Counted from the first letter of the stretch, positions 2,248 to 18,712 are shown. The stretch: 64,000 nucleotides of DNA from Parcubacteria group bacterium Gr01-1014_8 (GCA_007376385.1 VMGC01000002.1:1-64000), one strand, 5' to 3'. Program-made: numbers and translations. The notes: generated from the sequence alone by a model not told the origin.

Positions 2248-3086
2248 TTGAGTTCAGTTTGTCCACAGCATAAAAACCATCAAGGCGACGCCTTGATGGT
2301 TTTTGCTATTATCCGGGAATGGCATTGCGTCGTCAGTCATTTGAAATCGACGAATGGTACCACTGTTACAACCGGGGAATCGATAAGCGTGCGACTTTTA
2401 AGTACGGGCACGATTACGAGCGTTTTCTGCAACTTCTATACCTCTGTAATGCAAAAGAGCCCGTTCATCGCAGCAATTTGACGGCTCGGACTACAAAAGA
2501 GGTTATGAATGTGCCTCGGCAGGCGGAGATTGTATCCATAGGGGCGTATTGTCTTATGCCTAACCATTTTCATTTGCTCGTGAAGGAAAAAACAATTGGT
2601 GGGATCACAGCATTTATGCAGCGTCTTGGCACGGCATATACAATGTATTTCAATATTAAGCATGGTCGTATAGGAAATCTTTTCTATAAACCGTTTCGAT
2701 CTCGGCATGTGATTGACGACAGATATTTCCAGAGGGTTGTTGAGTATTTACACTGTAATCCCGCGGAGCTTTTTGAAGTCAACTGGAAGCAGGGTGTTGT
2801 TAAAGATATGCAGGCGCTTGAAAAAAGAATCTCATCGTATCGATACTCAAGTTTTTCGGATTATCACGAGGAGAAGCCACGTTCGGAGCGGGTAATACTA
2901 TCGCCCGAAGGATTTGAGATCGCAAACGTACGACCTCTTCGACAGATGCTCGGAGAAGCTCGTGCATATTATGCGGATATTGCAATTGATGAAGCAACTT
3001 CGAAAACCATCAAGGCGTCGCCTTGATGGTGGGGTCGCCTTGAGGCTAGAAATGACGGGGTTTTACGTATCACCGTATTTTGGACA
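2247..3086 (+). mobile_element. IS200/IS605-like (RAYT-like) insertion carrying a single HUH Y1 transposase gene
   Basis: An 840-bp segment between 35-bp direct repeats. A subterminal perfect palindrome AAAACCATCAAGGCG-A-CGCCTTGATGGTTTT lies near the left end (about 2268-2298). A near-identical imperfect palindrome lies at the right end (about 3008-3036). The single ORF has the HUH motif. Confidence 0.6.
2319..3026 (+). CDS. IS200/IS605-family (Transposase_17 / RAYT-like) HUH tyrosine transposase
   Basis: 235-aa ORF. It has the HUH motif (YCLMPNHFHLLV) and a downstream YxxxNP tyrosine motif (VEYLHCNPAE) typical of TnpA(IS200) and REP-associated tyrosine transposases. Confidence 0.8.
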   Translation: MALRRQSFEIDEWYHCYNRGIDKRATFKYGHDYERFLQLLYLCNAKEPVHRSNLTARTTKEVMNVPRQAEIVSIGAYCLMPNHFHLLVKEKTIGGITAFMQRLGTAYTMYFNIKHGRIGNLFYKPFRSRHVIDDRYFQRVVEYLHCNPAELFEVNWKQGVVKDMQALEKRISSYRYSSFSDYHEEKPRSERVILSPEGFEIANVRPLRQMLGEARAYYADIAIDEATSKTIKASP

Positions 3087-3121
3087 GGCGGCATGGGAGG
3101 AATGGGTGGGGAGGACTACTA
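3087..3121 (+). repeat. 35-bp direct repeat, copy 2 (duplicate of groEL tail; right flank of the IS200-like element)
   Basis: Identical to 2212..2246. It is followed by the probable original groEL downstream sequence and hairpin. Confidence 0.85.
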
Positions 3122-3147
3122 ACGGCAATATATCTTGAAGAAATATA

Positions 3148-3180
3148 CAGCGGCTCGTTCCCATTAGGAACGAGCCGCTG
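3148..3180 (+). terminator. 14-bp-stem hairpin downstream of the duplicated groEL tail (terminator-like, no U-tract)
   Basis: cagcggctcgttcc-catta-ggaacgagccgctg forms a perfect stem. It is not followed by a T-run, so function as an intrinsic terminator is uncertain. Confidence 0.4.
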
Positions 3181-3207
3181 CTGTATAAGAGGTGTTAGAA
3201 TTTGTGC

Positions 3208-3816
3208 ATGAGTGAATTGAATAGACCGCGAAGTTTTTCGCCACAAGCAGGTTGGAGAACAAAACTTGCGCTCGCGCTCAGTCTTATGCCGGGGCAACTC
3301 GGAGTTGCTTCACATGCTGTGCATGCAGAACCAGGCAGATTCGACGAGATGATGAGAGACGAACAGGTCTTTTTGCGGGATGAGCGGGAAAGTAAAGAAA
3401 AAAGTGACGCGAGAAAACTTGCAGGAGAATTTGCGTTGAAACGTGCGTCTTTAGCAGAGGAAGAAGGCAAGTTGAAGATCCGTTTTAAAACATTCGAAGA
3501 GAGACAGCAGCGTTTGAAAGGGATAATAAACGAACGCGACTCAGCGGGCTTAAGTAAAGGCACCGTTGAAGAGCGCATGTTAGAAGACGAGGCAGGAGAA
3601 GGGACTATCGAGATGCTGGATCTATTGGAGTGGATACGAAAGAAGTATCCTGATCCGTCAAAGATGATAGAGCAATTTACCGAAGAGAGAGATAGAGATG
3701 CTTTAAAAAACGTGCGGCGCATAACTGAGATAATAGAAAAAATGTTGCAACTGCCTGGGACTCTAAAAGACCAGCAAATACTCCTCGAGTTGCTGCTTAC
3801 CCCTGGTTCTGATTAA
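3208..3816 (+). CDS. hypothetical acidic coiled-coil protein
   Basis: The ORF has a plausible start at 3208 (AAGAGG about 14 nt upstream). It is charged and helical, with no recognisable domain. Confidence 0.45.
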   Translation: MSELNRPRSFSPQAGWRTKLALALSLMPGQLGVASHAVHAEPGRFDEMMRDEQVFLRDERESKEKSDARKLAGEFALKRASLAEEEGKLKIRFKTFEERQQRLKGIINERDSAGLSKGTVEERMLEDEAGEGTIEMLDLLEWIRKKYPDPSKMIEQFTEERDRDALKNVRRITEIIEKMLQLPGTLKDQQILLELLLTPGSD

Positions 3817-3842
3817 AGTAAAGCAAGAATTGTAGAGATCGA

Positions 3843-6800
3843 GTGCATCGCACAAGCTCTCATACACAATGTTTGCTCGGTTCAACTGAAAGTGCAGGAT
3901 ACAATAGAGGCACATATCTCATGTCTGAAAAGACACACACGCCCCAGCATTTTTTTGGGCTCCTTTTGGTGCTCGTTTGTCTTGGTTTAATGTTAACGTT
4001 TGCGTTAAAGATCCCGTCGTCAAAAGCGCTCAGCGAGATTCCCGGCGATCCGAGCCCGGATTGCAAGGGGCCCTATTGTGTCAATAAGTCATTCAAAGGC
4101 AGCCCTTATCTCACAGCTGGTTGTGTTGAGCCTAAACAAGGGGAGACACCGACAAAAGACGGACTTATCGGTAAGAAATGTACTGTCACAAAAGATATTT
4201 CATGCACGGGAACTTGTATTGCCCCTCAACCTATTTGTGGTCACGCGAGTACATGTGATGGTAAGCCGGTAAAGAAAGCGGAAATTCCGAATGACCCGTG
4301 CGGATTAAGTCCTTGCCCTCCACCGCCGAACAATAATCAACAAGCCCCAAATAGTCCCGAAGAATCCGGGGGGCCACCTCCTTCGGAAGGAATGCCTCCT
4401 CCGCAATCCGGACTTGAACCTGATTTTTCGAAGTACGGAGAGTGGGGCGCGGAGCCACCGCCATCTGGAACACCTCCTTCTCCGGGGTCGGACTTCAAGT
4501 TCAGCGATTTTGGGGAATTAGGCAGCCTCCCTCCGCCACCAGATGCGCCCCCTTCTTCTGATGCTCCTCCGGGCAGATCTGGCTCAACTGGGTTTAATCC
4601 GCCGCCATCAGCTGGCGATATTAGCAGCGGTTTGGAGAATGTAGCAAAAGGCCTCGGCGACACGCTTTCAAAGATGGGACAAGATTTTATTCAAGCCGCA
4701 GGAGACGCTCTTAACAAAGGAAGAGAAACACTCGAAGACATCCTGCAAAGGCTTGCTGGTGCGGGGGATGGAACACCAGCTCCAACGCCAGATATTAAAA
4801 ACGAGATAGCAAAGAACGAAACAAAGGCAAGCCCAACACCCGCGGCAGAAAAAGGAATTGCTTCAACATACTGGCAACCGCAGAAACTTGCAGGTGGAGG
4901 ACAATTCAATCCAAACGCGATGACTGCGGCACATAAAACGCTTCCATTTGGGACACGTGTACGGGTTACTAATCTTAATAATGGAAGATCGGTCGAAGTG
5001 AAAATAAACGATCGAGGCCCTTATGTTAAGGGTCGCATAATCGACTTGTCGGATGCCGCGGGTAAGGCCATCGGGATCAATCGTTCAACTGCTCCAGTTA
5101 CAGTGGAGGTACTTGGCAAAGGCGCTGTTTCTTCAGGACCCTCGGGCGCGGCCTCGGGTTATCCGGTCGTTTCTCCCTCGGTCGGGCAAGGTTTAGGAGA
5201 AACCGAGCCGCCGTCATTCAACAACTCCACGTACGATGTTGCGCAAGGACTTGGTGAAAGTGAACCCCCATCGTTCAACAATTCCATGTATGATGTTGCG
5301 CAAGGTCTTGGAGAAACTTCGCCACCAGAATTCGGAAACATTGACTGGAGCCAGTACTCTTCGCAAGAGTTCGTAGGAACAGGACTCGGAGAAACCGAGC
5401 CGCCGTCATTCAACAACTCCACGTACGATGTTGCGCAGGGTCTCGGAGAAACGGAACCGCCAGCATTCGACGGTCCCGTAGAATCGCCACCGCTTGCTGA
5501 CGAGCAAGGTTTTATCGATTACGCGAATCAACTTGCAGACGAAACCTTTGCCGATACCATGGAAAAAGTACTCCAAGAGTGGACGGACGCGAAAGCATTT
5601 GCCGATGACATGGCAAAAGTTCTGCAAGAGTGGACTGAGACCAGAATGGCGGAAATGCAGGCAGCCGCTGAGGCTATGGCTGAGCAGTTGCGGGCATGGG
5701 AACAGGAGGCCAAGGACCTGTTGGCCAATATGGTCGCTCCAGAACCAGAAGAACCGCCTGTTGAAGGGATGGGTTTTGAGAAAGAAATTGAACTCGCAAA
5801 TAAAGTTGGTCAAGAAACAGAAGCGGCGCAAGCCGATAAAGCAGCAGCAGAACAGAAAGCTTCCGACGAAGCAGAACAGCAAAGGCGGGATGAACAGCAG
5901 AGGGCCGGAGAAGAATTACAGCGGCAGGCAGATGCGCAGGCCAAAGCGGAGGAACAGCAGCGAAGTGCAGAAGCGGAGCAAGAACGGCTAGATGAACAAC
6001 AGCGCGCAGGTGAAGAAATGCAACGACAGGAAGATGAAAGAGCTGCCGAGATAGAACGCCTCAAGAACGCAGACGCGGAAGATGCTTCCAAAATACCGGG
6101 CAAAGATGAAAAGATCGATTGGGGCAAATACGAGAAAGTTGACCAGTTTGATCAACAAGACAAGGAGTTAGGCGAGGAAATGAAGAGACAAGCTGACGCG
6201 AAAGCGGCAGAAGAAACGGCACGTGAGAAAAGTGCGGAAGCGGAGCGGCAAAGAAGCGCAGATGCAGAGCAAGAGCGATCGGGCGAACAAACAAGAGCAG
6301 GTGAAGAGTTAGAAAGACAAGCGGATGAGAAGGCACGGCAAGAAAAAGCAGCTGAAGAAGAACGTCAGCGACAGGACGAGATGAAGAGAGCAAGCGATGA
6401 AATGAAACGGCAGGCAGATACGTGGGCCGCGAAGGAAAAGAAATTATTCAAAGATACGACCGATGAACTTCGCGCGTGGGCGAAAGAGGACTGGGATAAA
6501 AACTACAAGGATGTGACGCCGGGTAAAACCGCGCCTGCACCGACACAGGGCAAAACTCCACCCGCAGGACCTCCTGCTAAAGCACCGCCAGCTGGTCCGC
6601 CGTCAGGTCCTCCGGGCGGAGGTACACCACCTCCAGGGGATGGAGGCCAGCCAGAAGGCGGCGGGGGCGGCATGGGAGAAATTCTTGGAAAAATCATGGA
6701 AATGTTGAAAGGGCTTCTTGGCATGGGAGGGGGCGGAGGAGGTGGAGGAGAAGAACAGCCAAGGCAACCAACTACGAACCCGTCCTCAACGAACCAACCA

Positions 6801-7103
6801 GGACCTATAGCGCCTCCTGCGAAAAAAGAACCGACAACAGCGAAACCAGTCGTTATCATGGTGGTGAATCCATCGAAGGTCGTCGAGGGCCATGATGCGC
6901 GCGTGTCATGGTCGAGCGTTCGCACACAAGAATGCGATGTTACAGACTCTGAAGGAAATACGATATCTACTGACGCAACCGATGGCACCGTGCTCATCGA
7001 AGACATGACAATAACAACAACGGTAACCATTACATGTTCAGCAGAAGGAAGAGACCCGATCACATCGGAACGGATCATTACCGTTGAGCCGTTCCCGATC
7101 TGA
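3843..7103 (+). CDS. giant secreted/membrane-anchored protein: N-terminal TM anchor, Cys-rich module, Pro-rich linkers, RlpA-like DPBB domain, tandem repeats, long E/Q/R/A coiled coil, C-terminal beta-sandwich-like domain
   Basis: 1086-aa ORF. The start is more likely about 3921 (MSEKTHT...FFGLLLVLVCLGLM). The DPBB region reads ASTYWQ...TAAHKTLPFGTRVRVTNLNNGRSVEVKINDRGPYVKGRIIDLSDAAGKAIG, which matches the RlpA family. The C-terminal approx. 80 aa (VSWSS..ECDV..TDG..EGRDPIT..ITVE) are shared with the next gene. Confidence 0.8.
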   Translation: MHRTSSHTQCLLGSTESAGYNRGTYLMSEKTHTPQHFFGLLLVLVCLGLMLTFALKIPSSKALSEIPGDPSPDCKGPYCVNKSFKGSPYLTAGCVEPKQGETPTKDGLIGKKCTVTKDISCTGTCIAPQPICGHASTCDGKPVKKAEIPNDPCGLSPCPPPPNNNQQAPNSPEESGGPPPSEGMPPPQSGLEPDFSKYGEWGAEPPPSGTPPSPGSDFKFSDFGELGSLPPPPDAPPSSDAPPGRSGSTGFNPPPSAGDISSGLENVAKGLGDTLSKMGQDFIQAAGDALNKGRETLEDILQRLAGAGDGTPAPTPDIKNEIAKNETKASPTPAAEKGIASTYWQPQKLAGGGQFNPNAMTAAHKTLPFGTRVRVTNLNNGRSVEVKINDRGPYVKGRIIDLSDAAGKAIGINRSTAPVTVEVLGKGAVSSGPSGAASGYPVVSPSVGQGLGETEPPSFNNSTYDVAQGLGESEPPSFNNSMYDVAQGLGETSPPEFGNIDWSQYSSQEFVGTGLGETEPPSFNNSTYDVAQGLGETEPPAFDGPVESPPLADEQGFIDYANQLADETFADTMEKVLQEWTDAKAFADDMAKVLQEWTETRMAEMQAAAEAMAEQLRAWEQEAKDLLANMVAPEPEEPPVEGMGFEKEIELANKVGQETEAAQADKAAAEQKASDEAEQQRRDEQQRAGEELQRQADAQAKAEEQQRSAEAEQERLDEQQRAGEEMQRQEDERAAEIERLKNADAEDASKIPGKDEKIDWGKYEKVDQFDQQDKELGEEMKRQADAKAAEETAREKSAEAERQRSADAEQERSGEQTRAGEELERQADEKARQEKAAEEERQRQDEMKRASDEMKRQADTWAAKEKKLFKDTTDELRAWAKEDWDKNYKDVTPGKTAPAPTQGKTPPAGPPAKAPPAGPPSGPPGGGTPPPGDGGQPEGGGGGMGEILGKIMEMLKGLLGMGGGGGGGGEEQPRQPTTNPSSTNQPGPIAPPAKKEPTTAKPVVIMVVNPSKVVEGHDARVSWSSVRTQECDVTDSEGNTISTDATDGTVLIEDMTITTTVTITCSAEGRDPITSERIITVEPFPI
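5185..5460 (+). repeat. intragenic tandem repeats (approx. 75-bp units encoding GLGETEPPSFNNSTYDVAQ)
   Basis: A 50-nt stretch is identical at about 5199-5250 and 5389-5440, with 3-4 repeat units. Confidence 0.8.
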
Positions 7104-7134
7104 GAACGAGAGCAGTCTTTGCACCGTTGCCAAC

Positions 7135-7151
7135 TTTTGAACAGTTGTTCG
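7135..7151 (+). promoter_or_regulatory. conserved near-palindromic motif TTTTGAACAGTTGTTCG upstream of the 826-aa paralog gene
   Basis: The identical 17-mer occurs at 9686..9702 upstream of the 2389-aa paralog. It lies about 33 bp upstream of the shared TATAAT. Confidence 0.45.
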
Positions 7152-7183
7152 CGCGCCGCACTCATTCGAGCGTTTATTAACTC

Positions 7184-7189
7184 TATAAT
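7184..7189 (+). promoter_or_regulatory. -10-like TATAAT box, 8 nt upstream of the ATG (possibly a leaderless or short-leader mRNA)
   Basis: ctcTATAATGATGAGTAATGCGAAACGCGC is shared 30/30 nt with the region upstream of 10031. Confidence 0.4.
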
Positions 7190-7197
7190 GATGAGTA

Positions 7198-9678
7198 ATG
7201 CGAAACGCGCGCGTCGCGGTTCCTTTGTTCGTAGCAACTATTTTGTGCTGCGCTCTCTTTGTTTTTGTACTTCTTTTCGCACAATCGAGTGAAAGTGCAA
7301 CGCCGCCGGCGGGTTCACCGGTGAATTGCGACGAACCGTACCGGACGTGTATAGCAGCGGCCGATCAAAAGTACGACGTACCGATGTCTACAACAGAAGC
7401 GGACAAGGCAGAGTGCCTAAACCGATGGAAGCTATGCATTACGAAAGACGCCGCATGCCAGTCTACGTTCAAAAGAAACACCGGGGGAAACTGCAGCACA
7501 AAACCGCAATGCAGGCATTGCAAGAACGTGATAACCGACAGCGAGGTGCGCTGCTGCTTTGAGCTGACGCATGGACCAGACGAAGAAAATTCGTGTGCAA
7601 CGAGTTTTGGCGGAAAATGCTATCACGCGGATAGAACATTGAGAAAGCCCCCTCCTTTTCTCGTAGGCTCAAACGATGTGGCGCGCATCATTTGTCCGGA
7701 CTGCATACGAATAGTGAATACCGATGGAAATGTTGTTGCCGTTCACCCGAGTACCCCCGCGCCGCCGAATTTCCAAAGTGTGGACAGCCCGCTCACTACA
7801 ATGGGCGATTTGGCTGCGAGAATTTCGGGCGAGAATGGATTGCCGCCCAACGAACTTCCCATGCAAATTGCACGAGAATACTTCGACTTCAAAAGTCTGA
7901 CTAGTGAGGGCGGATATCTTGACGTAAATACGGGCGAAGAGTATACGGATAGGGCAACAGATCTGGGAAAGACCTTACAGTTCCTGCAAGACAATGCGAC
8001 ATCACTTGACCCGCCAAAGCGTGAAGAGCCGCCTGATGATGGTGCAAATAAGGATACGCCTTGGGAAAAAGACGTCGGGTACAAGGCTGATGACACAAAA
8101 GCTAGCGAAGCGTTGGCGAAAGCGGCTGAACGCGAGCGAGCGGCGGAGCTTCAACGATGGAAAGAGCTCGGGGCCAAGGAAATAGAGGCGCAAAAAAGGG
8201 CAGAGGCCGATGAAGCCAAACGCCGGACAGAGCCGCCGTCTCTTTTGGAGCGCTCGAAGTATGACCTCGAGAAATTCCTGCGCACTGCAGGAATCAAGTC
8301 AACCCTCATTCCTCAAGGTGAGCCTGATGTACCGACGGTTCGTCCGATGTTTCCAACGTCAGCCGATGCTCCAGACCCGAACACAACCGCCGAATCGCGT
8401 TTCGCAGCAGTGCGAGATGCGGCGGAACAGTTTGATAAGTCTTCGAAGGAGCTTAGCGTGCTCCGTGCAGAACACGCAGATAATTATTATGATAAGGATT
8501 TTCGCGACCCGAGACTTCTGTATGCCGAAGAAGTAAATCGTGCCGACCGTGAAAGATTGGCTGCAGCGCTGGGAGCTGCGAAACAAGATCTCCCGCAACC
8601 GCTTGCGGAAAAGCTCGCGGCGCTTGAAAAGATGCACGATGATGCTCGAGCGCGGACAGAGGAAGTGAGAACAGGTTTCGAAAGAGCTACCGCAAATTTT
8701 CAAACGTGGGCAGAACAGAATGGCAAAACCACCCTGGGACATAAAGCAGATACTGATGCATTGTGGCATCGGGAAATACCAAAAGGCGCCGGCTCAAACA
8801 TATTTAACGATTGGTTTCCTGTTTGGATGCAAACGACACAAAGTCCGCAGCGAGAATATAGTGACGTGCGAACATATGACCGAGCGCAGGGGGAAATGTC
8901 CTCGGCAATTCAACGTGCGGAGACCGTCGAGCGTAATGCTGCGGCAGAGATACTTACTATCTTTGCTTCGGCTCCGCCGCCTCCCGTTGTAGCAGCAGCC
9001 GAGCCGAAGGCTTTAGAACCCACGGTGGTTATAGGAGCGGGACTGCCGACGGTTCTGCCATCGGGTCCGCCCCCCGCGCCAGATGATACAGCTGCTCCTC
9101 CTGTGCGACCGCCATCAGAGGACGGACCTGCAGGGCCTCCCTCTAAAACAACGCCGGGAGACGATCCTCCTCCGCCTTCTAAAGCGGCTCCTACGCCGCC
9201 CCCCGCACCCCCTCCGAACGGCCCAGGTCCTTTTCCGTTTCCGACCTACACTGACGGAAATGATAACGGTCAGCAAAACGGTGAAGAAAACAGCGGTGGC
9301 TTCGGTTCCGTTTTTGAGTACTTGAAAAAGGTGCTTGGTTTTGGTACTCCTCCTCAGAATAGTTCGCCTCCTCAACCTCCACCGACTGACCAGAAGACTG
9401 GTCCGGGTTCACAGCCTTACCTCGGTGCGCCGAAAGCAGTTGTCACCTTGATAGTAAGTCCAATAGTCGTTTCCGCTGGGCGTTCAGCGTATGTTTCGTG
9501 GTCAAGTATCAATACGAAAGAATGTGATGTGGGATCTGACGGAAAATTGCTTTCGGACAACAGCACGGACGGGATAGTCACCATCAAAAAGATAAAGACC
9601 TCGACAACTGTTCGCATCTCATGCGTGGTAGAAGGAAGGGACCCGATAACTGCAGAAAAAAAGATCACCGTCGAGTAA
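7198..9678 (+). CDS. secreted Cys-rich/Pro-rich surface protein (paralog family A) with C-terminal beta-sandwich-like domain
   Basis: 826-aa ORF. It has a signal peptide (VPLFVATILCCALFVFVLLFA). The N-terminal Cys-rich module is homologous to that of the 10031 gene. The C-terminal domain is homologous to the C-terminus of the 3843 gene. Confidence 0.8.
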   Translation: MRNARVAVPLFVATILCCALFVFVLLFAQSSESATPPAGSPVNCDEPYRTCIAAADQKYDVPMSTTEADKAECLNRWKLCITKDAACQSTFKRNTGGNCSTKPQCRHCKNVITDSEVRCCFELTHGPDEENSCATSFGGKCYHADRTLRKPPPFLVGSNDVARIICPDCIRIVNTDGNVVAVHPSTPAPPNFQSVDSPLTTMGDLAARISGENGLPPNELPMQIAREYFDFKSLTSEGGYLDVNTGEEYTDRATDLGKTLQFLQDNATSLDPPKREEPPDDGANKDTPWEKDVGYKADDTKASEALAKAAERERAAELQRWKELGAKEIEAQKRAEADEAKRRTEPPSLLERSKYDLEKFLRTAGIKSTLIPQGEPDVPTVRPMFPTSADAPDPNTTAESRFAAVRDAAEQFDKSSKELSVLRAEHADNYYDKDFRDPRLLYAEEVNRADRERLAAALGAAKQDLPQPLAEKLAALEKMHDDARARTEEVRTGFERATANFQTWAEQNGKTTLGHKADTDALWHREIPKGAGSNIFNDWFPVWMQTTQSPQREYSDVRTYDRAQGEMSSAIQRAETVERNAAAEILTIFASAPPPPVVAAAEPKALEPTVVIGAGLPTVLPSGPPPAPDDTAAPPVRPPSEDGPAGPPSKTTPGDDPPPPSKAAPTPPPAPPPNGPGPFPFPTYTDGNDNGQQNGEENSGGFGSVFEYLKKVLGFGTPPQNSSPPQPPPTDQKTGPGSQPYLGAPKAVVTLIVSPIVVSAGRSAYVSWSSINTKECDVGSDGKLLSDNSTDGIVTIKKIKTSTTVRISCVVEGRDPITAEKKITVE

Positions 9679-9685
9679 TTGCACG

Positions 9686-9702
9686 TTTTGAACAGTTGTT
9701 CG
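9686..9702 (+). promoter_or_regulatory. second copy of TTTTGAACAGTTGTTCG motif
   Basis: Identical to 7135..7151. Here it is separated from the TATAAT by the inserted 277-bp TIR element. Confidence 0.45.
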
Positions 9703-9734
9703 AATACAGGCCCCGTTTGAGACGGTATTCGCTC

Positions 9735-10021
9735 TATAACCCCGTGAGATAGTTACGCACTATTTTTAATGCGCGTCTTTATATATCGTTTGCCCCAAGC
9801 AGTTTTAAGATATTTTTCTCGAATGTGCGCGTCCTTAATCGAGGTGGATGCCTCGTAGTAAACAAGTTGCCACGGACCCCTATTTTTTGTTGAGAATACT
9901 TTGTTGCTGTTATGAAGATTGAATCTTCGGCGTAAATTATTCGTAGAGCCCACATAAAACTGCTTGGGGCCACGAATTACATACACATAGTACATGTACC
10001 TAATTATCTCACGGGGTATAA
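9735..10021 (-). mobile_element. TIR-bounded mini-element carrying only a GIY-YIG nuclease gene (TIR CCCCGTGAGATA / TATCTCACGGGG; 5-bp TSD TATAA)
   Basis: The left TIR core is at 9740..9751 and the right TIR core at 10005..10016. TATAA flanks both sides (9735..9739 and 10017..10021). The paralogous empty site at 7181..7210 contains a single TATAA. Confidence 0.6.
9753..9995 (-). CDS. GIY-YIG nuclease family protein (stand-alone URI domain, approx. 80 aa)
   Basis: MYYVYVIRGPKQFYVGSTNNLRRRFNLHN... shows the GIY-YIG signature (YVY..FYVG/YIG, R, H/N). It occupies almost the whole interior of the TIR element. The stop codon abuts the left TIR. Confidence 0.85.
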   Translation of the reverse strand: MYYVYVIRGPKQFYVGSTNNLRRRFNLHNSNKVFSTKNRGPWQLVYYEASTSIKDAHIREKYLKTAWGKRYIKTRIKNSA

Positions 10022-10030
10022 TGATGAGTA

Positions 10031-13000
10031 ATGCGAAACGCGCATGTCGCAGGTGTTTTGTTTGTAATTCTTGCAGCTACTATCTGCAGTGCTGCATTCA
10101 TAGCTCTCGGTTCATCATTTGTGCCTACTGCATCTGCACAAAGTGGACAGGGTAATTGCAAGACGCAATACGATGCGTGTATAAAGGCCGCGAATTCCGC
10201 TGCTGCGAAAGCACAGACCTCTGCGCAAGTACAACAGGCTGCGAAGGATAAAGCATCATGCATGCCGAAGTGGCGCACGTGCATGAACAAATGTAAGCAG
10301 CTTACGAAAGGTGCAGACGGTGCTTCGAGCTGTTCGACGGATAGTGAATGCAAAGGAAAACGCTGCAAGGATACCTATAACGATCTAACGAAAGAGAGAA
10401 AGTGTTGCGTAAATCTTTATGACCTCGGAAAAGAATCGCAAAATTCGTGCCCGAATGAAGTTACCTCTAGTGTAGGGCTGCGATGTTATGAAGATGCTGC
10501 GGCGCCTCATGACCCGACAAAAGGGGGAACGCCTGGGGGCACGCCATCTACGCCAGGCGGACAGCCGGAACAACCTTCGGGAGGAATGCCGCAAATTCCG
10601 CAACCGTCGCCGGGAGAAGGCTCACCGCCGAAAGAGCAACCCAAAGAAGAACCGACGCCAGAGCCGAAAAAGGAACCGACATTGTTTGAGAAATTCGCTC
10701 AGTATCTTGGAGGAGATACACCGAAGACAGATGATGCAAAATCACCGCTCGATTATTTCTTCAAGAAAGATGAGGTTGAGCTTGGTTCAACACCCGCTGA
10801 TACTTTAGGAAAGGATTTCCCCGATGCATCGGACAAATGGTGGAATGATGCTGTTGGGCAAAGCACATTCGGTGCGCCCGAAAATTCAGTAGTAACCACA
10901 GACCAGAGTAATTGGGAGCAATTCAAAGAACATATAGCAAATGGAGATATTGTCGCAGCGGGTGGAGATGTCATTGATGGCGCAAAAAATGTGCTTGGTC
11001 TAGGCGATGAAGTGGCTGCAGAGATTCCAGGCGATACAAAAACACTGACTGATGAAACTCCTGACGTGCCAAAAGAGGGACAACAATATGCTGAAGCAAA
11101 ACCCGGTGCCGCCCCGGAAAAACCGACGTCAGATTTAAGTAAAGAGGAGCAAAAGGCAATCACGGAAAAATCCCTGAAAGATACTGAAGCGAAGATCGCC
11201 GCTACCAACAAGGATCTTCAGAATCCCAATCTTGACGAAGCATCAAAAGAAGCACTTCGGGAAAATCTGAAGGACCTTCAATCGCAGCAAGCGGATCTTA
11301 AAAAGGAAATAAACGATCTCGCTAATCCTCCTGAGGCGATACGGAACAAAGCCATCATGGGTGAAGGTGCGCTAAGTGAACACCAACTGCCGTATGACGC
11401 CGAACCAGGGGGGAGAAAAGTATACGTTGAAACAGATGGACCGAACGGAAAGCATATCGTCGAAGTGGACTCGAAAACGGCGGGGACCGATGCCAATGGG
11501 AAGCCTACGACCCTGGGCGATATCGCCCAAGCAAATGGCGCCGGAAATTCGCCGACAAATCCGCTGCCGATGGATGCAGTGCGGTCAGCGGTGGGTGGAG
11601 ATGAAGGACTGAAGGCAATGACAACTCCTACTATAGAGAAGACAGGCGAGGCTCTTACATACAACCGGCCAGTCGGTCCTAATGATCAGGCAACTCTTGA
11701 TGTTAAAGTCGAAAAAAGTCCGGTCAGCAATTTATATGAAGTCAATCAAGATCCGCTGAAAGTCGCTTCGGAAGGGTATCAAGAGGGAGAGGGCAAAGTG
11801 GTGAACGAGGGCAAATTCCTTTTTGGTGAGGGAGCAAAACCACCACCCGCAGGGGAGCCACCTACAGCGGCGTCTCCGCCACCGCCTGCGGAATCTGAAA
11901 AAAGTGACGCATCAGTCGCACGCTCCCCGAATACGCCCGAAGAATATGCAAAAGCCGCCGAAGAAGCGATCAAGCGATCGATGGTAAATCTGGGGAATGG
12001 TTTTGCAAATGTCGTCGATGCCGCAAGAGAAGGAATTAGTAATGCTGCTGTTGAAGTTCAAAAATGGGCGCACGAGGCGAAACAAGCGGCAGCAGATGCA
12101 TACAATTATGTTGCCGGCACAATAGAAGATATACGTCCCGCAGGAAATCCTACAGACGTACAAGCGCCCTCCCCCGGGCCGGTGGCGCAGCAGCCGAGTC
12201 CATCGCCGGGCGATAATCCAGGCGGAGGCACTGTTGTACCTGATACACAAGGAACCATTCCTATAAAAGCGCCCACTGGTCCCGGAGATCAAAATCCTCC
12301 GGTTAAGTCTGGGGACGGATCGACTGATGGAGGAAAAACGGAACCAACGATTACTCCCACGGATAAACCTGGCAAAGACATAGACGCGCCTGTTCCTGAT
12401 CCGCAAGGGAAAACAAAACAACCGACAACGCCGAGTCCGGAAGGAAAGGAGCAGACGGTACCACAGCCTGCGCCGCCAAGCTCTCCTCCAAATCGGGGTT
12501 GGTTTAAAAGAATCGCCGATGCGCTCCGTGGTTTTCCGATTCCCGGTCCCTCACCTTCGCCGACAAATATCTCACCGTCCGTATTTCAACCGCAGCCACA
12601 AGGTCAAGATCAAAAGCAGGCCCCGCAGCCAACGCCTTCAGAAAAGAAAGGTCAACCGGAACCGGATCCGAAAGGGACCGCAAAAAGTAATTTTGCTCCG
12701 AAAACAAAAAATAACCTCCAGGAGTTTTTGGCAGATGCGCTCAAAAAATTCGCAGATGGAATTGCGAAGCGAACAGGTCAAGATCCTGGAGAAACTCCAG
12801 GAGGACAAGGTCCGAGCAAGACCGCGAAAGATAACGATCCGAATAAACCCCTTGGGAACAGCTTGGAGAATCCGAAGCAAGTGAAAGATGGAATTCCTGC
12901 GAAGAGCAATACCGGCGAAGCTGGAACCGGCAAAGGTCAGGAGGGAAAGCAGCAACAGCAGAAGGGAGCAAAAGACCAGGAAGGGCAGAAAAAAGGAGAC

Positions 13001-16000
13001 GATGGGAAGCAGGGAGTGCCATCTGGCACGCCAAGCAATACACCTGCGCCCCCTGACTTACCGCGACCGAATATGGTCGCGAAATTACAGGTACCGACTC
13101 CTGTAGCTTCGAATGACCCAAAGGGAAAAACCATCGAGGCTCAAAGCAAAGAGAATGTCCAAACACAGCCTGGCGATAGCGGGCAAGGGCAGGGACAGCC
13201 CAAAGGTGGAGGCAAATCTCTGCTTGAGAAACCGAGTTCTGAAAAAGTCGAAAACGCAACGCCGAGCCCGAGTCCTACCAGAGGTTTCCTTGCGAAGCTT
13301 CCAAATCCGCTTGTATCAATTCCAGGAAAAATAGTAGGCGTGAGTGCGCCTGACGGCGATGCAGTGCCAAGTCCGGCAGGCGATGTGATGCGAACGTCGG
13401 ATGGGCGGCTCAAAACACCGAGTATTTCTGGACGTTCATTGGAAGGACAGCCTGTCAAAGCCGTTGGAGATGCGAAGAAACTACTGCCGACTCTCATCTC
13501 GACGAGAGCTGAAGATGTGCGAGATTTTGTGAGAGGAAGCGGGGTCAGAACTCGGTTCGGTATCAAAGATTGTGCGGCAGCCCCTACTGGCTGGGTTTGT
13601 CAGAACTTAGGAGACATAGCGCAAAGGCAAGGATGTTCGCCTGGGGACCATTCGTGTTGGCAATCTGACGTTGCTGATGCGGAGGCATATTGGGCAAAGC
13701 TTCTCATGCAGCCAAATTACACGCGATGTCAGCCACTGACCGTGCAATGCATTATTAGCGGTCCTGATGGGAGAGGCAATTGGGTCGCCGATGATTCTGC
13801 ATGGAGACGTGCGCAAGGATTAGGCGGTACAGGCTCTAACGCTGACCATGTTGGCAGAGTCATCAGATTCATGGCCGAGAAAGGAGTAAATGTCCAGGGG
13901 AACACGCCTCTCGATCTGAATGATGCGAATGTGAGAAGGGCGTTGGCTTACGGTCAATCAAGAGCCGAACTTAGGGCAGGCGAGAGCGCATATGACGATA
14001 GCGTGATTGATACGGGTTATGAACGCGCTGTTGCGCGCGCTGGCGGAGCACCCCCGCCGCCAATTGTGCCGTCCACACCACCTGCGGCGATTCCGGTGCA
14101 ATCAACGCACGCGCAAGCTTTGCAAAAATATCAAGATGCATTGGCCTGCAAGGGCAATGAGTGTAGACAGCAGAAGATAGATGTTCGAAATCCCCAAGGT
14201 GTGTCGCCAGAGCTGGCGGAGCAAATAAAGCAGCGACATAGCACCGCTCCACAAAAACCTGGGTATGGTACGGAAGTGAACAAGGCGACTGTCATAGCCG
14301 ACCTTGCTGCGTGCGAGGCGATGGGGGGCGGCTGTGGCAGATTATCTTCGTCGGCCCGTTCGCCAGGACAGACGAGGCATGGTCCGGGAGATGCGATTGA
14401 CGTCACGTTCACCGACCCACAAACGCAAGGCACATATGCAGCGCTTTTCATGAACGGCGCCCATGCACTCGGGGCAACTCCTGGCATGGGTTTCAATACA
14501 GAATGCAGCACGGGTTGCATCGTACATGCAGACACGGTAGGCGCGAGTGCCGGACCTGGGGCAGCGAACGCGTGGGCCTATGGTCCTAACTGCGGAAGCG
14601 GAAGCAGCGACTGCATAAAAAATATAGTCGACCCACGGGTTCGTTCAATTGCGAATCTCGCGTATGCGGGGCAGCCGGTTCCTAATAACCTTGTTCCAGA
14701 ATCTATTACACCAGGGACTACGGTTCCAGGGGGGACACCCGCGAGTCAGGTTGTCCGTGGCCCACATGTTCCCGGTTCCGAGCCGGGCATTGTTCCGGGA
14801 AAGGAAGAAGCCAGCAGGTCGCCGGAGGAACAAAAGAAATTAGACGACGATGCGGCACGTGAAAAGCCAAGCCCCTCGGCCACAAAGTCTCCGCCTGGTC
14901 TCACTGGTGACGTTGCAAAAGACGCTGTAAATAAATTCTCACACGATCTTGGGCAAAGGGGATTTGTCTTTGGAAAGGACAGTAAGCTCCTCACGCCACA
15001 GGAAGCAGCAGAGCTATTCAAGAAAGGAGAAAAGCCGGATATCTATCTACCTCGCGACAAAGGTCCGAATCCATTTGCGAGCCCGGAGCAAAAAGCACAA
15101 TTTACGAAAGCTCCAAACGGGCAACATTATGAAAAATTCGAAGGGACTTTTGATGAGTATCGTCAGCGTCTGACGCAAGAATTAACAGCAGCCATTGAAA
15201 ATGCGATGCGTGACCAGCAGCTCAATTCGAAACCGGAGACGGAGAAACTTCGGGATGGAGGAAAACTTGTAACGAAGGGTGAGGGCCAGATACGCAATGT
15301 GTTTCGAGAAAAAGACGGAAAACTAAGTGACAAGCCTGTCGGTCAGGTGCGCGAGATAAGCAAAGAATTTGCGCAACTTCGAAAGGCAGTAGAACTGCAA
15401 GGCGACAAAGTGAAAGTGAAAGAAAAAAATGGACAGTTCAAAACAGAAGATGGAAGACGCGTCGAATTGCGTCCTGATACCGGCAAGGATGCGCCGCCGC
15501 CGTGCACTGATTTTACAAAATGTCATACGGGCGGAAAGATAGAGAATGGAAGATTTGTCGGAGCAGATGGTTCTAACATCGTGAATATACCGGGTGTTGG
15601 ACGCGTAAGATTTGAGCACAATCCATTCAGCCCGAATGCAGGAACGCAACGCGGAAATATGAGTGCGCTCGTCATCCATGAATTCAGAAACCCAGGCGGC
15701 GCAAGGAATGTTGATAGTACGGTGAGATGCCATCAGAACGGTTGCCGAGGAGGAGGCGTATATACGCAAGCGTATGTAAGCCAGCCCTATATTGCAGAGG
15801 ATGGAATGAAGGAAATACGCGTAGTTCAGCTCGGTTCGGCGTACGAGCGCAGTGGCCACGCGGGCTCGACACCGCTTGGCAGCCAGCCGGGACCCGGAAT
15901 AGAGAATGCGTGTCACGGAAGAGGAGATTGCAGTGATCCTCTGCAGATTGCGGCGAACGCTATTATGTATGACGCCTATCGTCAGCAATATCCGAATATG

Positions 16001-17200
16001 GCCGTGACGCATCACCAAGGGGATGAAGGTTTGCCTATTGCGCGTGCACTGTACGCACGCGTACAGGGCGGTTTGCAGGGTTCACTATCAGATGAGCCAG
16101 TCGCACTTTTCGCAGTATCGGAAAATGGAGATGCCGAGAAACTGGGCACCAGCATGAAGCCATCTGAACTTCCAGCGGCCGGCGGTACCGAATTCGAAAG
16201 TGTAGGGGACAATGGAAACCCAAATGGAGATGTCCGTATCGAACTTGATCCCATCAAGATAGGCACAGCAGACGTTCAGCCGACAATAGAAGGCGACAAA
16301 CTCGGTTTTGTCCCGACCTATACGCCGCCACCTCCTCCGCCCGCTCCACCGCCTCCTCCATCTTTTAGACAGAGAATGGCAGAAGCAGCGCGACGCCAAT
16401 TGGACAATTTGTCGAACGCGATGAAAAAAATGATGCAGCCGCCTAGCGGGGGCGGTGGAGGACAGCCGCAACCTCAACCGCAGCCACCTGTGCCACCTCC
16501 GCCTCCAATTCCACCAACATCGACAACGGGCGAGCCGAAAATAACCTGTACACCGACCGCTGCGATCGCGGATCAAAAAGTGAGAATTAAATGGTCGTGC
16601 CCTCCAACCCAGCTAGCAGTCGGCGTCGGCTTCGAGACCAAAGGTTTGGCGAATAGCGAAGTAGAAGTGCGCGTATCGAATGATAAGACACTATCGGAAG
16701 CGAAATATTCACTTCGCTGCGGAACGCTTCCGGAGCGTTCATGCACGGTGAAGATAGTCCGCCCGGCTATACTTATGATCGCCCAGCCTGGCGAAGTAGG
16801 ATCTGGGAAGACAACGAATCTAGCATGGGCGGCGACTCAAGTCCGAGTCTGCAAGATATACGACCCCGCATGCAAGGTTGTAGGTTCCGGTAATTCGGGT
16901 GGCAGAATAAAAACGAAAGCTCTGACTCGTTCAAGTACTTTCATGCTCGGCTGTGAGACAATTACAGGCGCAATGACCACGTCATCTGTTGTCGTAAAAG
17001 TGAAAGGAGATACGAAGGAACCACTTCCTGCGTGTCCGGCGGAAAGCATCCAACATGATGTTGTATTTACGACGAGCAGCTTGAACACTAAAAGTACTCC
17101 AACAGCCTACCCAGTACCATCTTCCAGCGGGTCCACAGAGCTGTGCAGTCCAAATCTTGATTTCGATTCTTTTATCAGATGTGTGATGGGTAAGAAGTAA
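10031..17200 (+). CDS. giant (2389 aa) secreted Cys-rich/Pro-rich surface protein (paralog family A) with two C-terminal beta-sandwich-like repeats
   Basis: It has a signal peptide. The N-terminal Cys-rich module is homologous to that of the 7198 gene. It contains long low-complexity P/G/Q/K-rich regions. A mid-region motif SPGQTRHGPGDAIDV resembles the HxxGxAxD zinc motif of peptidase M15/LAS enzymes (low confidence). The C-terminal domains show the VxxGxxxxxxW..C pattern. Confidence 0.85.
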   Translation: MRNAHVAGVLFVILAATICSAAFIALGSSFVPTASAQSGQGNCKTQYDACIKAANSAAAKAQTSAQVQQAAKDKASCMPKWRTCMNKCKQLTKGADGASSCSTDSECKGKRCKDTYNDLTKERKCCVNLYDLGKESQNSCPNEVTSSVGLRCYEDAAAPHDPTKGGTPGGTPSTPGGQPEQPSGGMPQIPQPSPGEGSPPKEQPKEEPTPEPKKEPTLFEKFAQYLGGDTPKTDDAKSPLDYFFKKDEVELGSTPADTLGKDFPDASDKWWNDAVGQSTFGAPENSVVTTDQSNWEQFKEHIANGDIVAAGGDVIDGAKNVLGLGDEVAAEIPGDTKTLTDETPDVPKEGQQYAEAKPGAAPEKPTSDLSKEEQKAITEKSLKDTEAKIAATNKDLQNPNLDEASKEALRENLKDLQSQQADLKKEINDLANPPEAIRNKAIMGEGALSEHQLPYDAEPGGRKVYVETDGPNGKHIVEVDSKTAGTDANGKPTTLGDIAQANGAGNSPTNPLPMDAVRSAVGGDEGLKAMTTPTIEKTGEALTYNRPVGPNDQATLDVKVEKSPVSNLYEVNQDPLKVASEGYQEGEGKVVNEGKFLFGEGAKPPPAGEPPTAASPPPPAESEKSDASVARSPNTPEEYAKAAEEAIKRSMVNLGNGFANVVDAAREGISNAAVEVQKWAHEAKQAAADAYNYVAGTIEDIRPAGNPTDVQAPSPGPVAQQPSPSPGDNPGGGTVVPDTQGTIPIKAPTGPGDQNPPVKSGDGSTDGGKTEPTITPTDKPGKDIDAPVPDPQGKTKQPTTPSPEGKEQTVPQPAPPSSPPNRGWFKRIADALRGFPIPGPSPSPTNISPSVFQPQPQGQDQKQAPQPTPSEKKGQPEPDPKGTAKSNFAPKTKNNLQEFLADALKKFADGIAKRTGQDPGETPGGQGPSKTAKDNDPNKPLGNSLENPKQVKDGIPAKSNTGEAGTGKGQEGKQQQQKGAKDQEGQKKGDDGKQGVPSGTPSNTPAPPDLPRPNMVAKLQVPTPVASNDPKGKTIEAQSKENVQTQPGDSGQGQGQPKGGGKSLLEKPSSEKVENATPSPSPTRGFLAKLPNPLVSIPGKIVGVSAPDGDAVPSPAGDVMRTSDGRLKTPSISGRSLEGQPVKAVGDAKKLLPTLISTRAEDVRDFVRGSGVRTRFGIKDCAAAPTGWVCQNLGDIAQRQGCSPGDHSCWQSDVADAEAYWAKLLMQPNYTRCQPLTVQCIISGPDGRGNWVADDSAWRRAQGLGGTGSNADHVGRVIRFMAEKGVNVQGNTPLDLNDANVRRALAYGQSRAELRAGESAYDDSVIDTGYERAVARAGGAPPPPIVPSTPPAAIPVQSTHAQALQKYQDALACKGNECRQQKIDVRNPQGVSPELAEQIKQRHSTAPQKPGYGTEVNKATVIADLAACEAMGGGCGRLSSSARSPGQTRHGPGDAIDVTFTDPQTQGTYAALFMNGAHALGATPGMGFNTECSTGCIVHADTVGASAGPGAANAWAYGPNCGSGSSDCIKNIVDPRVRSIANLAYAGQPVPNNLVPESITPGTTVPGGTPASQVVRGPHVPGSEPGIVPGKEEASRSPEEQKKLDDDAAREKPSPSATKSPPGLTGDVAKDAVNKFSHDLGQRGFVFGKDSKLLTPQEAAELFKKGEKPDIYLPRDKGPNPFASPEQKAQFTKAPNGQHYEKFEGTFDEYRQRLTQELTAAIENAMRDQQLNSKPETEKLRDGGKLVTKGEGQIRNVFREKDGKLSDKPVGQVREISKEFAQLRKAVELQGDKVKVKEKNGQFKTEDGRRVELRPDTGKDAPPPCTDFTKCHTGGKIENGRFVGADGSNIVNIPGVGRVRFEHNPFSPNAGTQRGNMSALVIHEFRNPGGARNVDSTVRCHQNGCRGGGVYTQAYVSQPYIAEDGMKEIRVVQLGSAYERSGHAGSTPLGSQPGPGIENACHGRGDCSDPLQIAANAIMYDAYRQQYPNMAVTHHQGDEGLPIARALYARVQGGLQGSLSDEPVALFAVSENGDAEKLGTSMKPSELPAAGGTEFESVGDNGNPNGDVRIELDPIKIGTADVQPTIEGDKLGFVPTYTPPPPPPAPPPPPSFRQRMAEAARRQLDNLSNAMKKMMQPPSGGGGGQPQPQPQPPVPPPPPIPPTSTTGEPKITCTPTAAIADQKVRIKWSCPPTQLAVGVGFETKGLANSEVEVRVSNDKTLSEAKYSLRCGTLPERSCTVKIVRPAILMIAQPGEVGSGKTTNLAWAATQVRVCKIYDPACKVVGSGNSGGRIKTKALTRSSTFMLGCETITGAMTTSSVVVKVKGDTKEPLPACPAESIQHDVVFTTSSLNTKSTPTAYPVPSSSGSTELCSPNLDFDSFIRCVMGKK

Positions 17201-17210
17201 TATCAGATGT

Positions 17211-17720
17211 ATGTTACGAGATTTCTTCAGAGGATTGGCCAAACGAGGACTTATACCTGTAAGCGTATTTTTGGTGCTAGCAGCATTTTCAGTGTGGGTT
17301 GGGACCGCACCACGATACGACGAGGAAGAATATCCTTCGTATCAGCAAGACCCGGGAGAGCTCAATATTTTCAACATTCTTGAAGGGGGCACCGTGCCGC
17401 AAACATTCGGCATCATTGGCGTTGCAAACGGTCAGTGGTTCTTTGATGGCTCTATGCCGGTAGAAGTTGTGACACCTGATGGAAACGTTATCTGGACAGG
17501 TCTTGCAGAAGCAACTGCAGGTGACTACATGAAAGACATCGAAATCCCATTTATTGCCAATGTTGACGTTGGAAACTACGTAGGACCCGTGGAAATAAGC
17601 ATTCGGCGCGCCTATCAAGGTGATGACCCTGCGTACGATAAAGAGTTTCGTATGCAGATAATTATCGAAGTTGATACCACGTCAGACCAACAAGACGCGC
17701 CGATGGAAGACTTGAATTGA
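17211..17720 (+). CDS. hypothetical secreted protein, possibly Gmad2/GerMN-like Ig domain
   Basis: 169-aa ORF with an N-terminal TM/signal segment. The pattern GQWFFDGSMPVEVVTPDGNVIWTG...GDYM is reminiscent of Gmad2-type domains. Confidence 0.55.
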   Translation: MLRDFFRGLAKRGLIPVSVFLVLAAFSVWVGTAPRYDEEEYPSYQQDPGELNIFNILEGGTVPQTFGIIGVANGQWFFDGSMPVEVVTPDGNVIWTGLAEATAGDYMKDIEIPFIANVDVGNYVGPVEISIRRAYQGDDPAYDKEFRMQIIIEVDTTSDQQDAPMEDLN

Positions 17721-17747
17721 ACCAGTCGAAGCGTATACTCTCCACAT

Positions 17748-18308
17748 ATGACACTTATCATCACACTTGGCGCAGCTGCGGTTTTGGTTCTTTGGGTTAT
17801 TTATGCATATAACCGACTTATTCAACTTACTAATCGCGGCGAGGAAGCGTGGTCGGATATCGACGTTCAATTGAAGCGCCGTTACGACCTCATTCCGAAC
17901 CTTGTGGAAGCAGTGAAAGGTTACATGACGCACGAAGCAGGAACTTTGCAGAAAGTGACCGAAGCCCGCACGAAAGCAATGGGCGCGCAGTCGGTTGGTG
18001 ACCACGCGGAAGCGGAAAATATGTTGACTGGCGCATTGAAGTCTTTGTTCGCAGTTGCGGAGAGTTACCCGGACTTGAAGGCGAATACGAACTTTGTTGA
18101 ATTACAACGAGAGCTGTCGGATACAGAAAATAAAATTCAAGCGGCTCGCAGGTTCTACAATTCTGTCGTGCAAGACCTTCAGAACGCACTTGAGTCATTC
18201 CCATCGAATATCATAGCCTCTTCATTTGGTTTCAAGACACGAGAATTCTTCACATTGTCGGAATCAGAGGCGGCTGCAGCAAAAGAGCCTGTGAAAGTTA
18301 GTTTTTAG
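17748..18308 (+). CDS. lemA: LemA family protein
   Basis: 186-aa ORF with an N-terminal TM segment and a conserved LemA core (YNRLIQLTN...RRYDLIPNLVE...RRFYN). Confidence 0.85.
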   Translation: MTLIITLGAAAVLVLWVIYAYNRLIQLTNRGEEAWSDIDVQLKRRYDLIPNLVEAVKGYMTHEAGTLQKVTEARTKAMGAQSVGDHAEAENMLTGALKSLFAVAESYPDLKANTNFVELQRELSDTENKIQAARRFYNSVVQDLQNALESFPSNIIASSFGFKTREFFTLSESEAAAAKEPVKVSF

Positions 18309-18331
18309 CCACTAGGGTATAGCCACTAGGG
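18309..18331 (+). repeat. left imperfect inverted repeat (tandem GCCACTAGGG units) flanking four-helix-bundle gene
   Basis: ccactagggtatagccactaggg is reverse-complement-related to 18713..18738 (ccctataccctaatggctaatggcta). Confidence 0.45.
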
Positions 18332-18334
18332 CGG

Positions 18335-18694: not shown

Positions 18695-18712
18695 TTTGCA
18701 TTTAACGCTAAA

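Follow-up and report, generated by a model that had tools for sequence, protein, structure and literature searches.

We analyzed a 64,000-nt stretch of DNA from Parcubacteria group bacterium Gr01-1014_8 (the window, by which we mean the whole stretch; all statements on the source genome cover these 64 kb, and gene starts are simple calls of open reading frames, ORFs). Two tandem paralogous genes in the window, which encode secreted proteins of 826 and 2389 aa, share a 5' module, and in front of the larger (giant) gene this module is interrupted by a 277-bp insertion sequence (IS)-like element whose only gene encodes a small GIY-YIG nuclease. The account that we favor, and that we hold as a whole with some confidence, is that the element inserted into the -10 hexamer of the giant gene, that the target site duplication (TSD) rebuilt this promoter, and that the element belongs to a family of GIY-YIG units bounded by terminal inverted repeats (TIRs). 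The features on which this account is built are the following, with positions counted from the first nucleotide of the window.

7135 to 7151, plus strand: first copy of the 17-mer TTTTGAACAGTTGTTCG, which starts 31 nt past the stop of a 1086-aa gene and ends 32 nt before TATAAT
7184 to 7210, plus strand: intact promoter/start block of the 826-aa gene, with TATAAT (7184-7189), 8 nt, ATG (7198) and the first four codons; the empty-site reference
7198 to 9678, plus strand: gene for the 826-aa secreted paralog, which has an N-terminal signal peptide and a Cys-rich region as in the 2389-aa protein
9686 to 9702, plus strand: second copy of the 17-mer, which starts 7 nt past the stop of the 826-aa gene and now lies 314 nt upstream of the giant-gene TATAAT
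9735 to 9739, plus strand: left TSD copy TATAA, where C as the next base disables the hexamer (TATAAC)
9740 to 10016, minus strand: IS-like element of 277 bp, with TIRs at 9740-9751 and 10005-10016 and the GIY-YIG gene as sole ORF
9753 to 9995, minus strand: stand-alone GIY-YIG nuclease ORF of 80 aa (Pfam PF01541, 54.6 bits against a cut-off of 22.6, E = 1.4e-14)
10017 to 10043, plus strand: giant-gene promoter/start block, with the right TSD copy (10017-10021) inside a rebuilt TATAAT (10017-10022), 8 nt, ATG (10031) and the first codons
10031 to 17200, plus strand: gene for the 2389-aa secreted giant paralog, 100% identical to 'uncharacterized protein G01um10148_399' of Parcubacteria group bacterium Gr01-1014_8

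The 17-mer is a near-palindrome (TGAACA-GT-TGTTCG, with the core GAAC-N4-GTTC) and is exact at both of the places named in the original prediction, an earlier reading of this DNA; no third copy was found in the window with up to three mismatches allowed. It is separated from TATAA(T) by 32 nt in both paralogs (7152-7183 and 9703-9734), close to the 33 bp or so that had been estimated, and the 27-mer TATAATGATGAGTAATGCGAAACGCGC is exact at 7184-7210 and 10017-10043. The original prediction had placed 30/30 identical nucleotides around the two starts. The identity is correct, with the second block at 10017-10043 and not, 3 nt off, at 10014-10040. The 'ctc' of the second site lies at 9732-9734, to the left of the element, and for this reason the 30/30 identity is real only after excision, when both paralogs read CTC, TATAAT and 21 nt running into the ATG. 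The further claim that the motif and the TATAAT are split by exactly the 277-bp TIR element (9740-10016) and one TATAA (9735-9739 or 10017-10021) held without change.

After deletion of 9740-10021, an ungapped alignment to 7120-7260 matched the 17-mer at 17/17 positions and the promoter/start block at 30/30, with equal spacing, as had been predicted; the spacer between them matched at 13/29 positions and the next 50 nt at 19/50. When the match vector was shuffled 100,000 times, a pair of runs as long as these (30 nt or more and 17 nt or more) did not occur once, and the spacer is too divergent for uniform divergence (P = 2e-4). The two proteins are homologous only over their N-terminal 240 residues, with 28% identity, so the exact nucleotide blocks are much better conserved than the genes. 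Removal of 282 bp restores the architecture of the upstream paralog, which is a valid empty-site control for the element; the expected empty-site junction is CGCTCTATAATGATGAGTAATG.

The element itself is compact. Its ends (CCCCGTGAGATA and TATCTCACGGGG) are complementary at 12/12 positions, and the ORF takes up almost all of the rest, with 1 nt between its stop codon and the left TIR and 9 nt between its ATG and the right one. The encoded protein gave a weak match to PDB 1ZG2, a UPF0213 protein that is its nearest solved relative. The ORF faces away from the giant gene and is preceded at 7 nt by a TIR-proximal GATAAT (10003-10008, minus strand), so that the element could have a leaderless promoter of its own, which may stand back to back with the giant-gene TATAAT at a distance of 8 bp. 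Against shuffled sequences, the element reaches z = -7.8 when folded as RNA and z = -6.0 when folded as DNA. Its coding sequence also contains a perfect inverted repeat of 16 bp (9792-9807 and 9955-9970), in which the codons for GPKQFY pair with those for LKTAWG. This repeat is confined to the closest subfamily, while other subfamilies have different internal repeats on their WGKRY codons, and we rejected an internal stem as a family-wide structure on this ground. The original prediction spoke of a recent insertion with a 5-bp TSD; the insertion and its duplication were borne out, and the perfect duplication, perfect TIRs and intact ORF make its recency plausible.

Five units with the same TIRs are present in the window, and direct repeats (TATAA, TATA, TATA and TTGA) flank four of them. 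Besides the element described above, these are the following.

26400 to 26501, plus strand: decayed copy of 102 bp that keeps the MYYVYV start of the GIY-YIG gene; no flanking duplication; at the P3 position of the RNase P RNA
41988 to 42082, plus strand: ORF-less copy of 95 bp with TATA/TATA flanks, in the -10 box of an ABC-transporter gene (TATACT 42083-42088, 6 nt, ATG 42095)
57916 to 58015, plus strand: ORF-less copy of 100 bp with TATA/TATA flanks and TATACT directly after it
60994 to 61091, plus strand: ORF-less copy of 98 bp with TTGA/TTGA flanks

Because TATAA and TTGA are not palindromic, these repeats are direct duplications and not extensions of the TIRs. The target was TATA at three of the four intergenic copies (intergenic TATA frequency 0.8%, P ~2e-6), and TATA, that is, the -10 box, is the target preference in this genome. 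At the ABC-transporter gene, synteny with a divergent tsaD gene is kept in three relatives whose proteins are 84-86% identical and whose promoters lack the element, and two of the three have TATAAT, 6 nt and ATG in a short intergenic region from which the element is absent. This promoter is a second, orthologous empty site, and again the element lies within the -10 box.

That TATAAT is a real -10 box is well supported by the statistics of this genome, as judged from 46 ATG-started genes of the window. A TANNNT hexamer ends 6-9 nt before the ATG in 19 of these genes, against a background of about one gene per position, and a Shine-Dalgarno-like tetramer precedes only 3/46; such spacing of -10 box and ATG without a Shine-Dalgarno sequence is the geometry of leaderless genes. 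TATAAT, 8 nt and ATG, as in both paralogs, is the modal class. Alignment of the 19 hexamers (which include two promoters rebuilt by element insertions) gave G as the commonest base at -2 (11/19) and at -1 (9/19) and no -35 consensus, and a sigma-70 scan for a -35 hexamer 16-18 nt upstream found no -35/-10 pair at either paralog. Leaderless genes of Actinobacteria and Deinococcus have TANNNT near the start codon. The promoters described here are like these in having a -10 box 6-9 nt before the ATG and in lacking a Shine-Dalgarno sequence, whereas the pattern here is purely statistical and comes from one Parcubacteria window.

In the account that we favor, the tandem paralogs would have begun with the same bipartite 5' module, a GAAC-N4-GTTC near-palindrome followed 32 nt on by TATAAT, itself 8 nt before the ATG. 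Insertion of the 277-bp element within this -10 hexamer at the 2389-aa gene would have duplicated TATAA, and the duplication would have rebuilt a full TATAAT beside the giant gene, with the G-rich end of the TIR now preceding it. The rebuilt hexamer is indeed preceded by the GGGG of the TIR. Since this end mimics the usual context at -2 and -1, the giant gene would keep a working core promoter, and both this promoter and the leaderless start are probably still functional. The palindrome would have moved from about -45/-61 to about -327/-343, and regulation of the giant gene that depends on it is probably lost or weakened. The original prediction had held that the insertion parted the giant gene from its putative operator or -35 region. 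The palindrome is displaced by 282 bp, as this implies, but a -35 is undetectable and the -10 was not cut off: because the duplication rebuilds TATAAT on the side of the gene, the insertion shifts the palindrome and does not remove the core promoter.

The 17-mer lies at a variable distance from the preceding stop codon (31 and 7 nt) and at a fixed distance from the -10 box, and so belongs to the downstream promoter. Its center is about 51 nt upstream of the expected start site, a position that fits an activator site or upstream element better than a repressor operator overlapping the promoter. We put at roughly even odds that it is a binding site for a dimeric regulator that co-regulates both paralogs. 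The near-palindrome on which the original prediction had based such an operator is present, and the proposed role rests on exact conservation and fixed spacing in two paralogs only. We rejected the 17-mer as a -35 element, as it lies 32 nt from the -10 box and the hexamers 17 nt past its TTGAAC (ACTCAT and CCCCGT) are neither -10-like nor conserved, and as a terminator, as its stem is 4-5 bp, its loop 2-4 nt and its T run on the wrong side, with no terminator predicted by a scan.

Two other explanations of the 17-mer bear on this choice. By eye it agrees at 12/14 positions with the consensus of the Gram-positive Cheo box, CGAACRNRYGTTYC, with which it has the core GAAC-N4-GTTC in common, and it could be a LexA-type SOS box that makes both surface-protein genes damage-inducible. 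This agreement is a lead only. We consider a LexA box quite improbable, for the 17-mer lies 32 nt upstream of the -10 box and not over it, GAAC-N4-GTTC occurs in the window just at the two paralog sites, a number (two or more) that is reached in 33/100 shuffles, and a review passage lists a study of LexA in Patescibacteria among cases of direct-repeat motifs. The 17-mer and the 27-mer could instead be remnants of a recent duplication or gene-conversion tract with no regulatory meaning, in which case the element would have hit neutral intergenic DNA. That the genes are tandem paralogs, that nucleotide identity is high for about 36 nt into the coding region and that the motif is not conserved in relatives all agree with this. 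A single tract would diverge uniformly, however, and what we found are perfect blocks of 17 and 30 nt on either side of a 29-nt spacer with 45% identity, a pattern reproduced in none of the shuffles, with the spacing to the -10 box exactly kept between genes whose proteins have diverged to 28% identity. We regard a remnant without function as rather unlikely.

The decayed copy at 26400-26501 is inserted in a probable RNase P RNA gene (class A, RF00010; approximately 26384-26842). This 102-bp unit stands between the P2 strand and the conserved AGGAAAGTCCGGGC, the position of the P3 stem-loop. The RNA matched the full length of the model with 97.9 bits (E = 1.9e-30) against a gathering score of 100 and is missed at default thresholds; its 5' P1/P2 strand is misaligned because of the insert. 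An intact GIY-YIG unit occupies the P3 position in six loci from metagenome-assembled genomes (MAGs) of Patescibacteria (L007, L008, L010, L011, L013 and L014; 53-92 bits), and in L008 and L014 the RNase P match includes, deeper inside, another short TIR hairpin. Inserts of this kind push several Patescibacteria RNase P RNA genes below the Rfam gathering score (53-98 against 100 bits), so that standard annotation misses them.

We collected 80 genomic loci on protein similarity alone (53-76% identity). They belong to Patescibacteria, Ignavibacteriota, Verrucomicrobiota, Bacteroidota, Planctomycetota, KSB1, Acidobacteriota, Chloroflexota and further phyla (more than 10 in all). The same TIR pair surrounds the ORF in at least 65 of the 80 loci, and the units measure 265-320 bp. 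In an alignment of 50 family sequences, the pairing of the two ends is the sole conserved structure: each of the 11 TIR pairs is retained by 49 sequences or more, with compensatory double changes in four pairs. The catalytic-type residues Y5, Y14/G16, R24, H28 and E48/E60, all of which the window protein has, are kept by 90% or more of 50 family members. The reading frame runs on through the right repeat in most phyla (TAT CTC ACG GGG TAA, giving YLTG and a stop); this accounts for the invariable T[A/G]A behind the repeat and lengthens the repeat to 16 bp, TTYACCCCGTGAGATA. ORF-less TIR units of 30-100 bp occur in other genomes, singly or in tandem arrays, and full units together with ORF-less ones form the pattern that an autonomous element and its non-autonomous derivatives would give. 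No constant neighboring gene was found across the family loci; in several Patescibacteria a co-oriented start codon follows the end of the unit at a distance of 3-15 nt. No Rfam family covers the element and no intron match was obtained, and none of 2.9 million viral contigs contained the exact TIR-bounded unit, which leaves the idea of a phage vector unsupported.

Tandem arrays of ORF-less TIR hairpins (58-95 bp, 3-5 nt apart) were seen in L045 (50-291), L080 (1726-2295), L084 (116-491) and L033 (2253-2815). A full GIY-YIG unit sometimes stands at the end of such an array, the junctions read GGGG-TTCA-CCCC, and the layout is like that of clusters of repetitive extragenic palindromic (REP) sequences and bacterial interspersed mosaic elements (BIMEs). 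A CRISPR-like reading of the arrays in L045, which have a period of 58-61 nt, was rejected because the 'spacers' are near-identical copies.

Movement of these units would most likely be by DNA transposition, in which the GIY-YIG nuclease would recognize and cut the TIRs and a staggered cut of 4-5 nt in the target would be filled in by the host. We put forward tentatively, as a possibility that we ourselves doubt, that the 277-bp unit is an autonomous DNA transposon and its sole protein, the 80-aa stand-alone nuclease, an unrecognized class of transposase; the unit would then be the smallest self-encoding bacterial element, spread over more than 10 phyla with near-invariant ends of 12-16 bp, targeted in Parcubacteria to the TATA of leaderless -10 boxes in a way that preserves the promoter, and established in P3 of RNase P RNA. 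Several points weigh against this proposal or against the account of the locus. Action of the nuclease on the ends and the staggered cut with fill-in are the weakest steps of the mechanism; we know of no strand-transfer activity in an 80-aa hydrolytic nuclease and of no established DNA transposon that relies on GIY-YIG only. Outside the Parcubacteria subfamily there are no clear target duplications, and the sequences flanking the TIRs are an extension of the TIR and the stop codon of the ORF. The polarity of the event at the giant gene, an insertion there or a precise loss in the upstream paralog, is not fixed by two paralogs. The three assemblies that carry the locus all have the element and may stem from one common sample. 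Promoter function, start site and effect of the insertion are all read from sequence, and as the 17-mer has two copies only and is not conserved outside this genome, its regulatory role is putative.

The same observations could be explained if the element is non-autonomous and an unlinked transposase acts on the TIRs, the GIY-YIG gene being a passenger or addiction gene. Such a transposase could be a DDE enzyme, as several DDE IS families typically make 4-5-bp target duplications, or a Y1- or RAYT-like one (REP-associated tyrosine transposase, RAYT). An ORF at 2319-3026, in the gene island described below, matches IS200-like Y1 transposases and REP-associated tyrosine transposases weakly (Pfam, 29.1 bits; NCBIfam NF047646, 37.8 bits, below the cut-off of 80). 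The ORF-less copies move in trans in any case, and the short TIR hairpins form arrays like those of REP sequences and BIMEs. We judge a passenger role for the nuclease possible, though on the unlikely side: TIRs and ORF stay associated in 65/80 loci of more than 10 phyla with no constant neighbor gene, the ORF usually runs through the right TIR, the Y1-like ORF is not flanked by the TIR repeats, and Y1 transposases leave no target duplication. A role at the level of RNA is also to be weighed, in which an intervening sequence (IVS)-like hairpin folds out of, or is cut out of, host transcripts and spreads by recombination, with no dedicated transposition. It would fit the folding of the element as RNA, the helix-like covariation of the arms, and the P3 position of the copies in the window and in six MAGs, and GIY-YIG ORFs have been reported in non-intron insertions in rRNA of Candidate Phyla Radiation (CPR) bacteria, in a study that mentions neither inverted repeats nor RNase P (PMC11270868). 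As an explanation of the whole family this is improbable, because an RNA role alone accounts neither for the place of the copy at 9740-10016, upstream of where the -10 box implies that transcription starts, nor for the direct target repeats around four copies, and the 12-nt sequence of the arms is conserved across phyla beyond what pairing demands. For the copies in RNase P RNA and rRNA genes, an RNA-level role may well exist.

Several known systems can be compared with the unit. Bacterial IS elements and their derivatives, MITEs (miniature inverted-repeat transposable elements), are similar in their TIRs, short TSD, several copies per genome, ORF-less derivatives, an ORF that runs into one repeat and insertion into promoters. 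IS3, IS5 and IS701 types make 3-5-bp duplications. The unit differs from IS elements in that its sole protein is an 80-aa GIY-YIG protein and not a DDE, HUH, serine or tyrosine enzyme, so that it contains no recognized transposase, and in that its TIR sequence is conserved across phyla. About 277 bp is, to our knowledge, far below the size of any known IS. IS elements can activate the bgl operon of E. coli, and such promoter-proximal insertions also part a gene from upstream regulatory DNA while a core promoter is left or created; here, in contrast, the TSD itself preserves the -10 box of a leaderless promoter that consists of the -10 only. REP sequences and BIMEs with RAYTs, as well as REPINs, are alike in having a small nuclease gene between short inverted repeats and dispersed or tandem intergenic hairpins of 30-100 bp, but the enzyme class is different (GIY-YIG, not Y1/HUH), a GTAG-type REP head is lacking, and target duplications are present. 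Insertions in stable RNAs (23S rRNA IVS with PF05635 ORFs, and CPR rRNA insertions) are similarly bounded by a hairpin, carry one small ORF and are tolerated in an RNA helix; the host RNA here is RNase P RNA (P3), and the unit is also present in promoters and intergenic DNA with target duplications.

The catalytic domain, with its conserved Tyr, Tyr, Arg, His and Glu, is common to I-TevI, Seg and Slx1/YhbQ-like (UPF0213) proteins. Unlike homing endonucleases, the window protein has no DNA-binding extension and is not associated with an intron or intein; TIRs and target duplications bound the unit, and its copies are spread over sites that have no relation to one another (promoters, the P3 of RNase P and intergenic DNA), with no single conserved homing site and with targets that are alike only in TATA. 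The minimal domain is like that of stand-alone prokaryotic Slx1-like GIY-YIG proteins, which a 2006 phylogenomic study described as the minimal ancestral form without extensions, with inverted repeats unmentioned (PMC1564403). We found no description of a TIR- or duplication-bearing bacterial GIY-YIG element in the full-text literature searched, a coverage that excludes most subscription journals and by which novelty is not proven.

To judge from this element, GIY-YIG mini-elements bounded by TIRs, with their MITE-like derivatives, make up what seems to be a very large family. If the nuclease does drive movement, it would represent a new enzyme class for prokaryotic transposition in a very compact mobile unit. 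The locus is also a natural experiment, in which the same 5' module is present twice and one copy is uncoupled from its palindrome by 282 bp with the -10 box kept. A comparison of the expression of the two paralogs would reveal the role of the palindrome and whether the leaderless, -10-only promoters of CPR bacteria need upstream DNA.

Two window proteins, of which the 2389-aa protein is one, are 100% identical to proteins of Parcubacteria group bacterium Gr01-1014_8, and the closest relatives bear the name Candidatus Kaiserbacteria. In relatives with a GroEL 80-85% identical, lemA and an M48 peptidase gene directly follow groEL, and positions 2250-17740 of the window thus form a lineage-specific island of about 15.5 kb. 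It contains the Y1-transposase-like ORF, a 204-aa ORF, the gene for a 1086-aa DPBB protein, the genes for the 826-aa and 2389-aa proteins and a 169-aa ORF. The 826-aa protein and the DPBB protein have a common C-terminal domain (36% identity). No homologs of the 826-aa protein were obtained with its N-terminal 200 aa as query, and a search with the full 2389-aa protein found itself and one partial homolog, nothing else. In the comparison with related genomes that the original prediction had called for, orthologs of the paralogs, the 17-mer and the 27-mer are all absent from 80 GroEL-anchored loci of relatives. The sole positional ortholog found, in relative L170, is one 1637-aa gene partly homologous to the giant gene, and its upstream order is a terminator hairpin, TACAAT, 10 nt and ATG, without the palindrome. 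The interval between groEL and lemA measures 0.1-6 kb in relatives; giant surface proteins have a variable hotspot here.

Other observations were made in and around the island. The Y1-like ORF encodes 235 aa and lies at the left edge of the island, directly after the groEL terminator. The DPBB gene contains imperfect coding repeats at 5189-5471 with a unit of 57 nt (19 codons), present as three 91-nt copies, whose starts lie 57 and 135 nt from each other and whose identity is 71-86%. A 2.6-kb contig (L165; ENA ERZ27284380 k139_4703) encodes an identical GroES protein, with an rve-type integrase gene before it and short ORFs after it in place of groEL; at its left border, the locus may thus differ between strains or between assemblies. 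To the right of the island, a gene at 18335-18694 encodes a 119-aa '23S rRNA intervening sequence protein' (PF05635) and stands between the two arms of an inverted repeat of 16 bp, AGCCAYTAGGGTATAG (18307-18322 and 18715-18730, 15/16). This insert (18307-18730) occupies the entire intergenic space between lemA and the M48 gene and ends 1 nt before the M48 ATG, and in one relative (L086) the same gap is only about 100 nt. It is a second compact, hairpin-bounded insert with a single gene.

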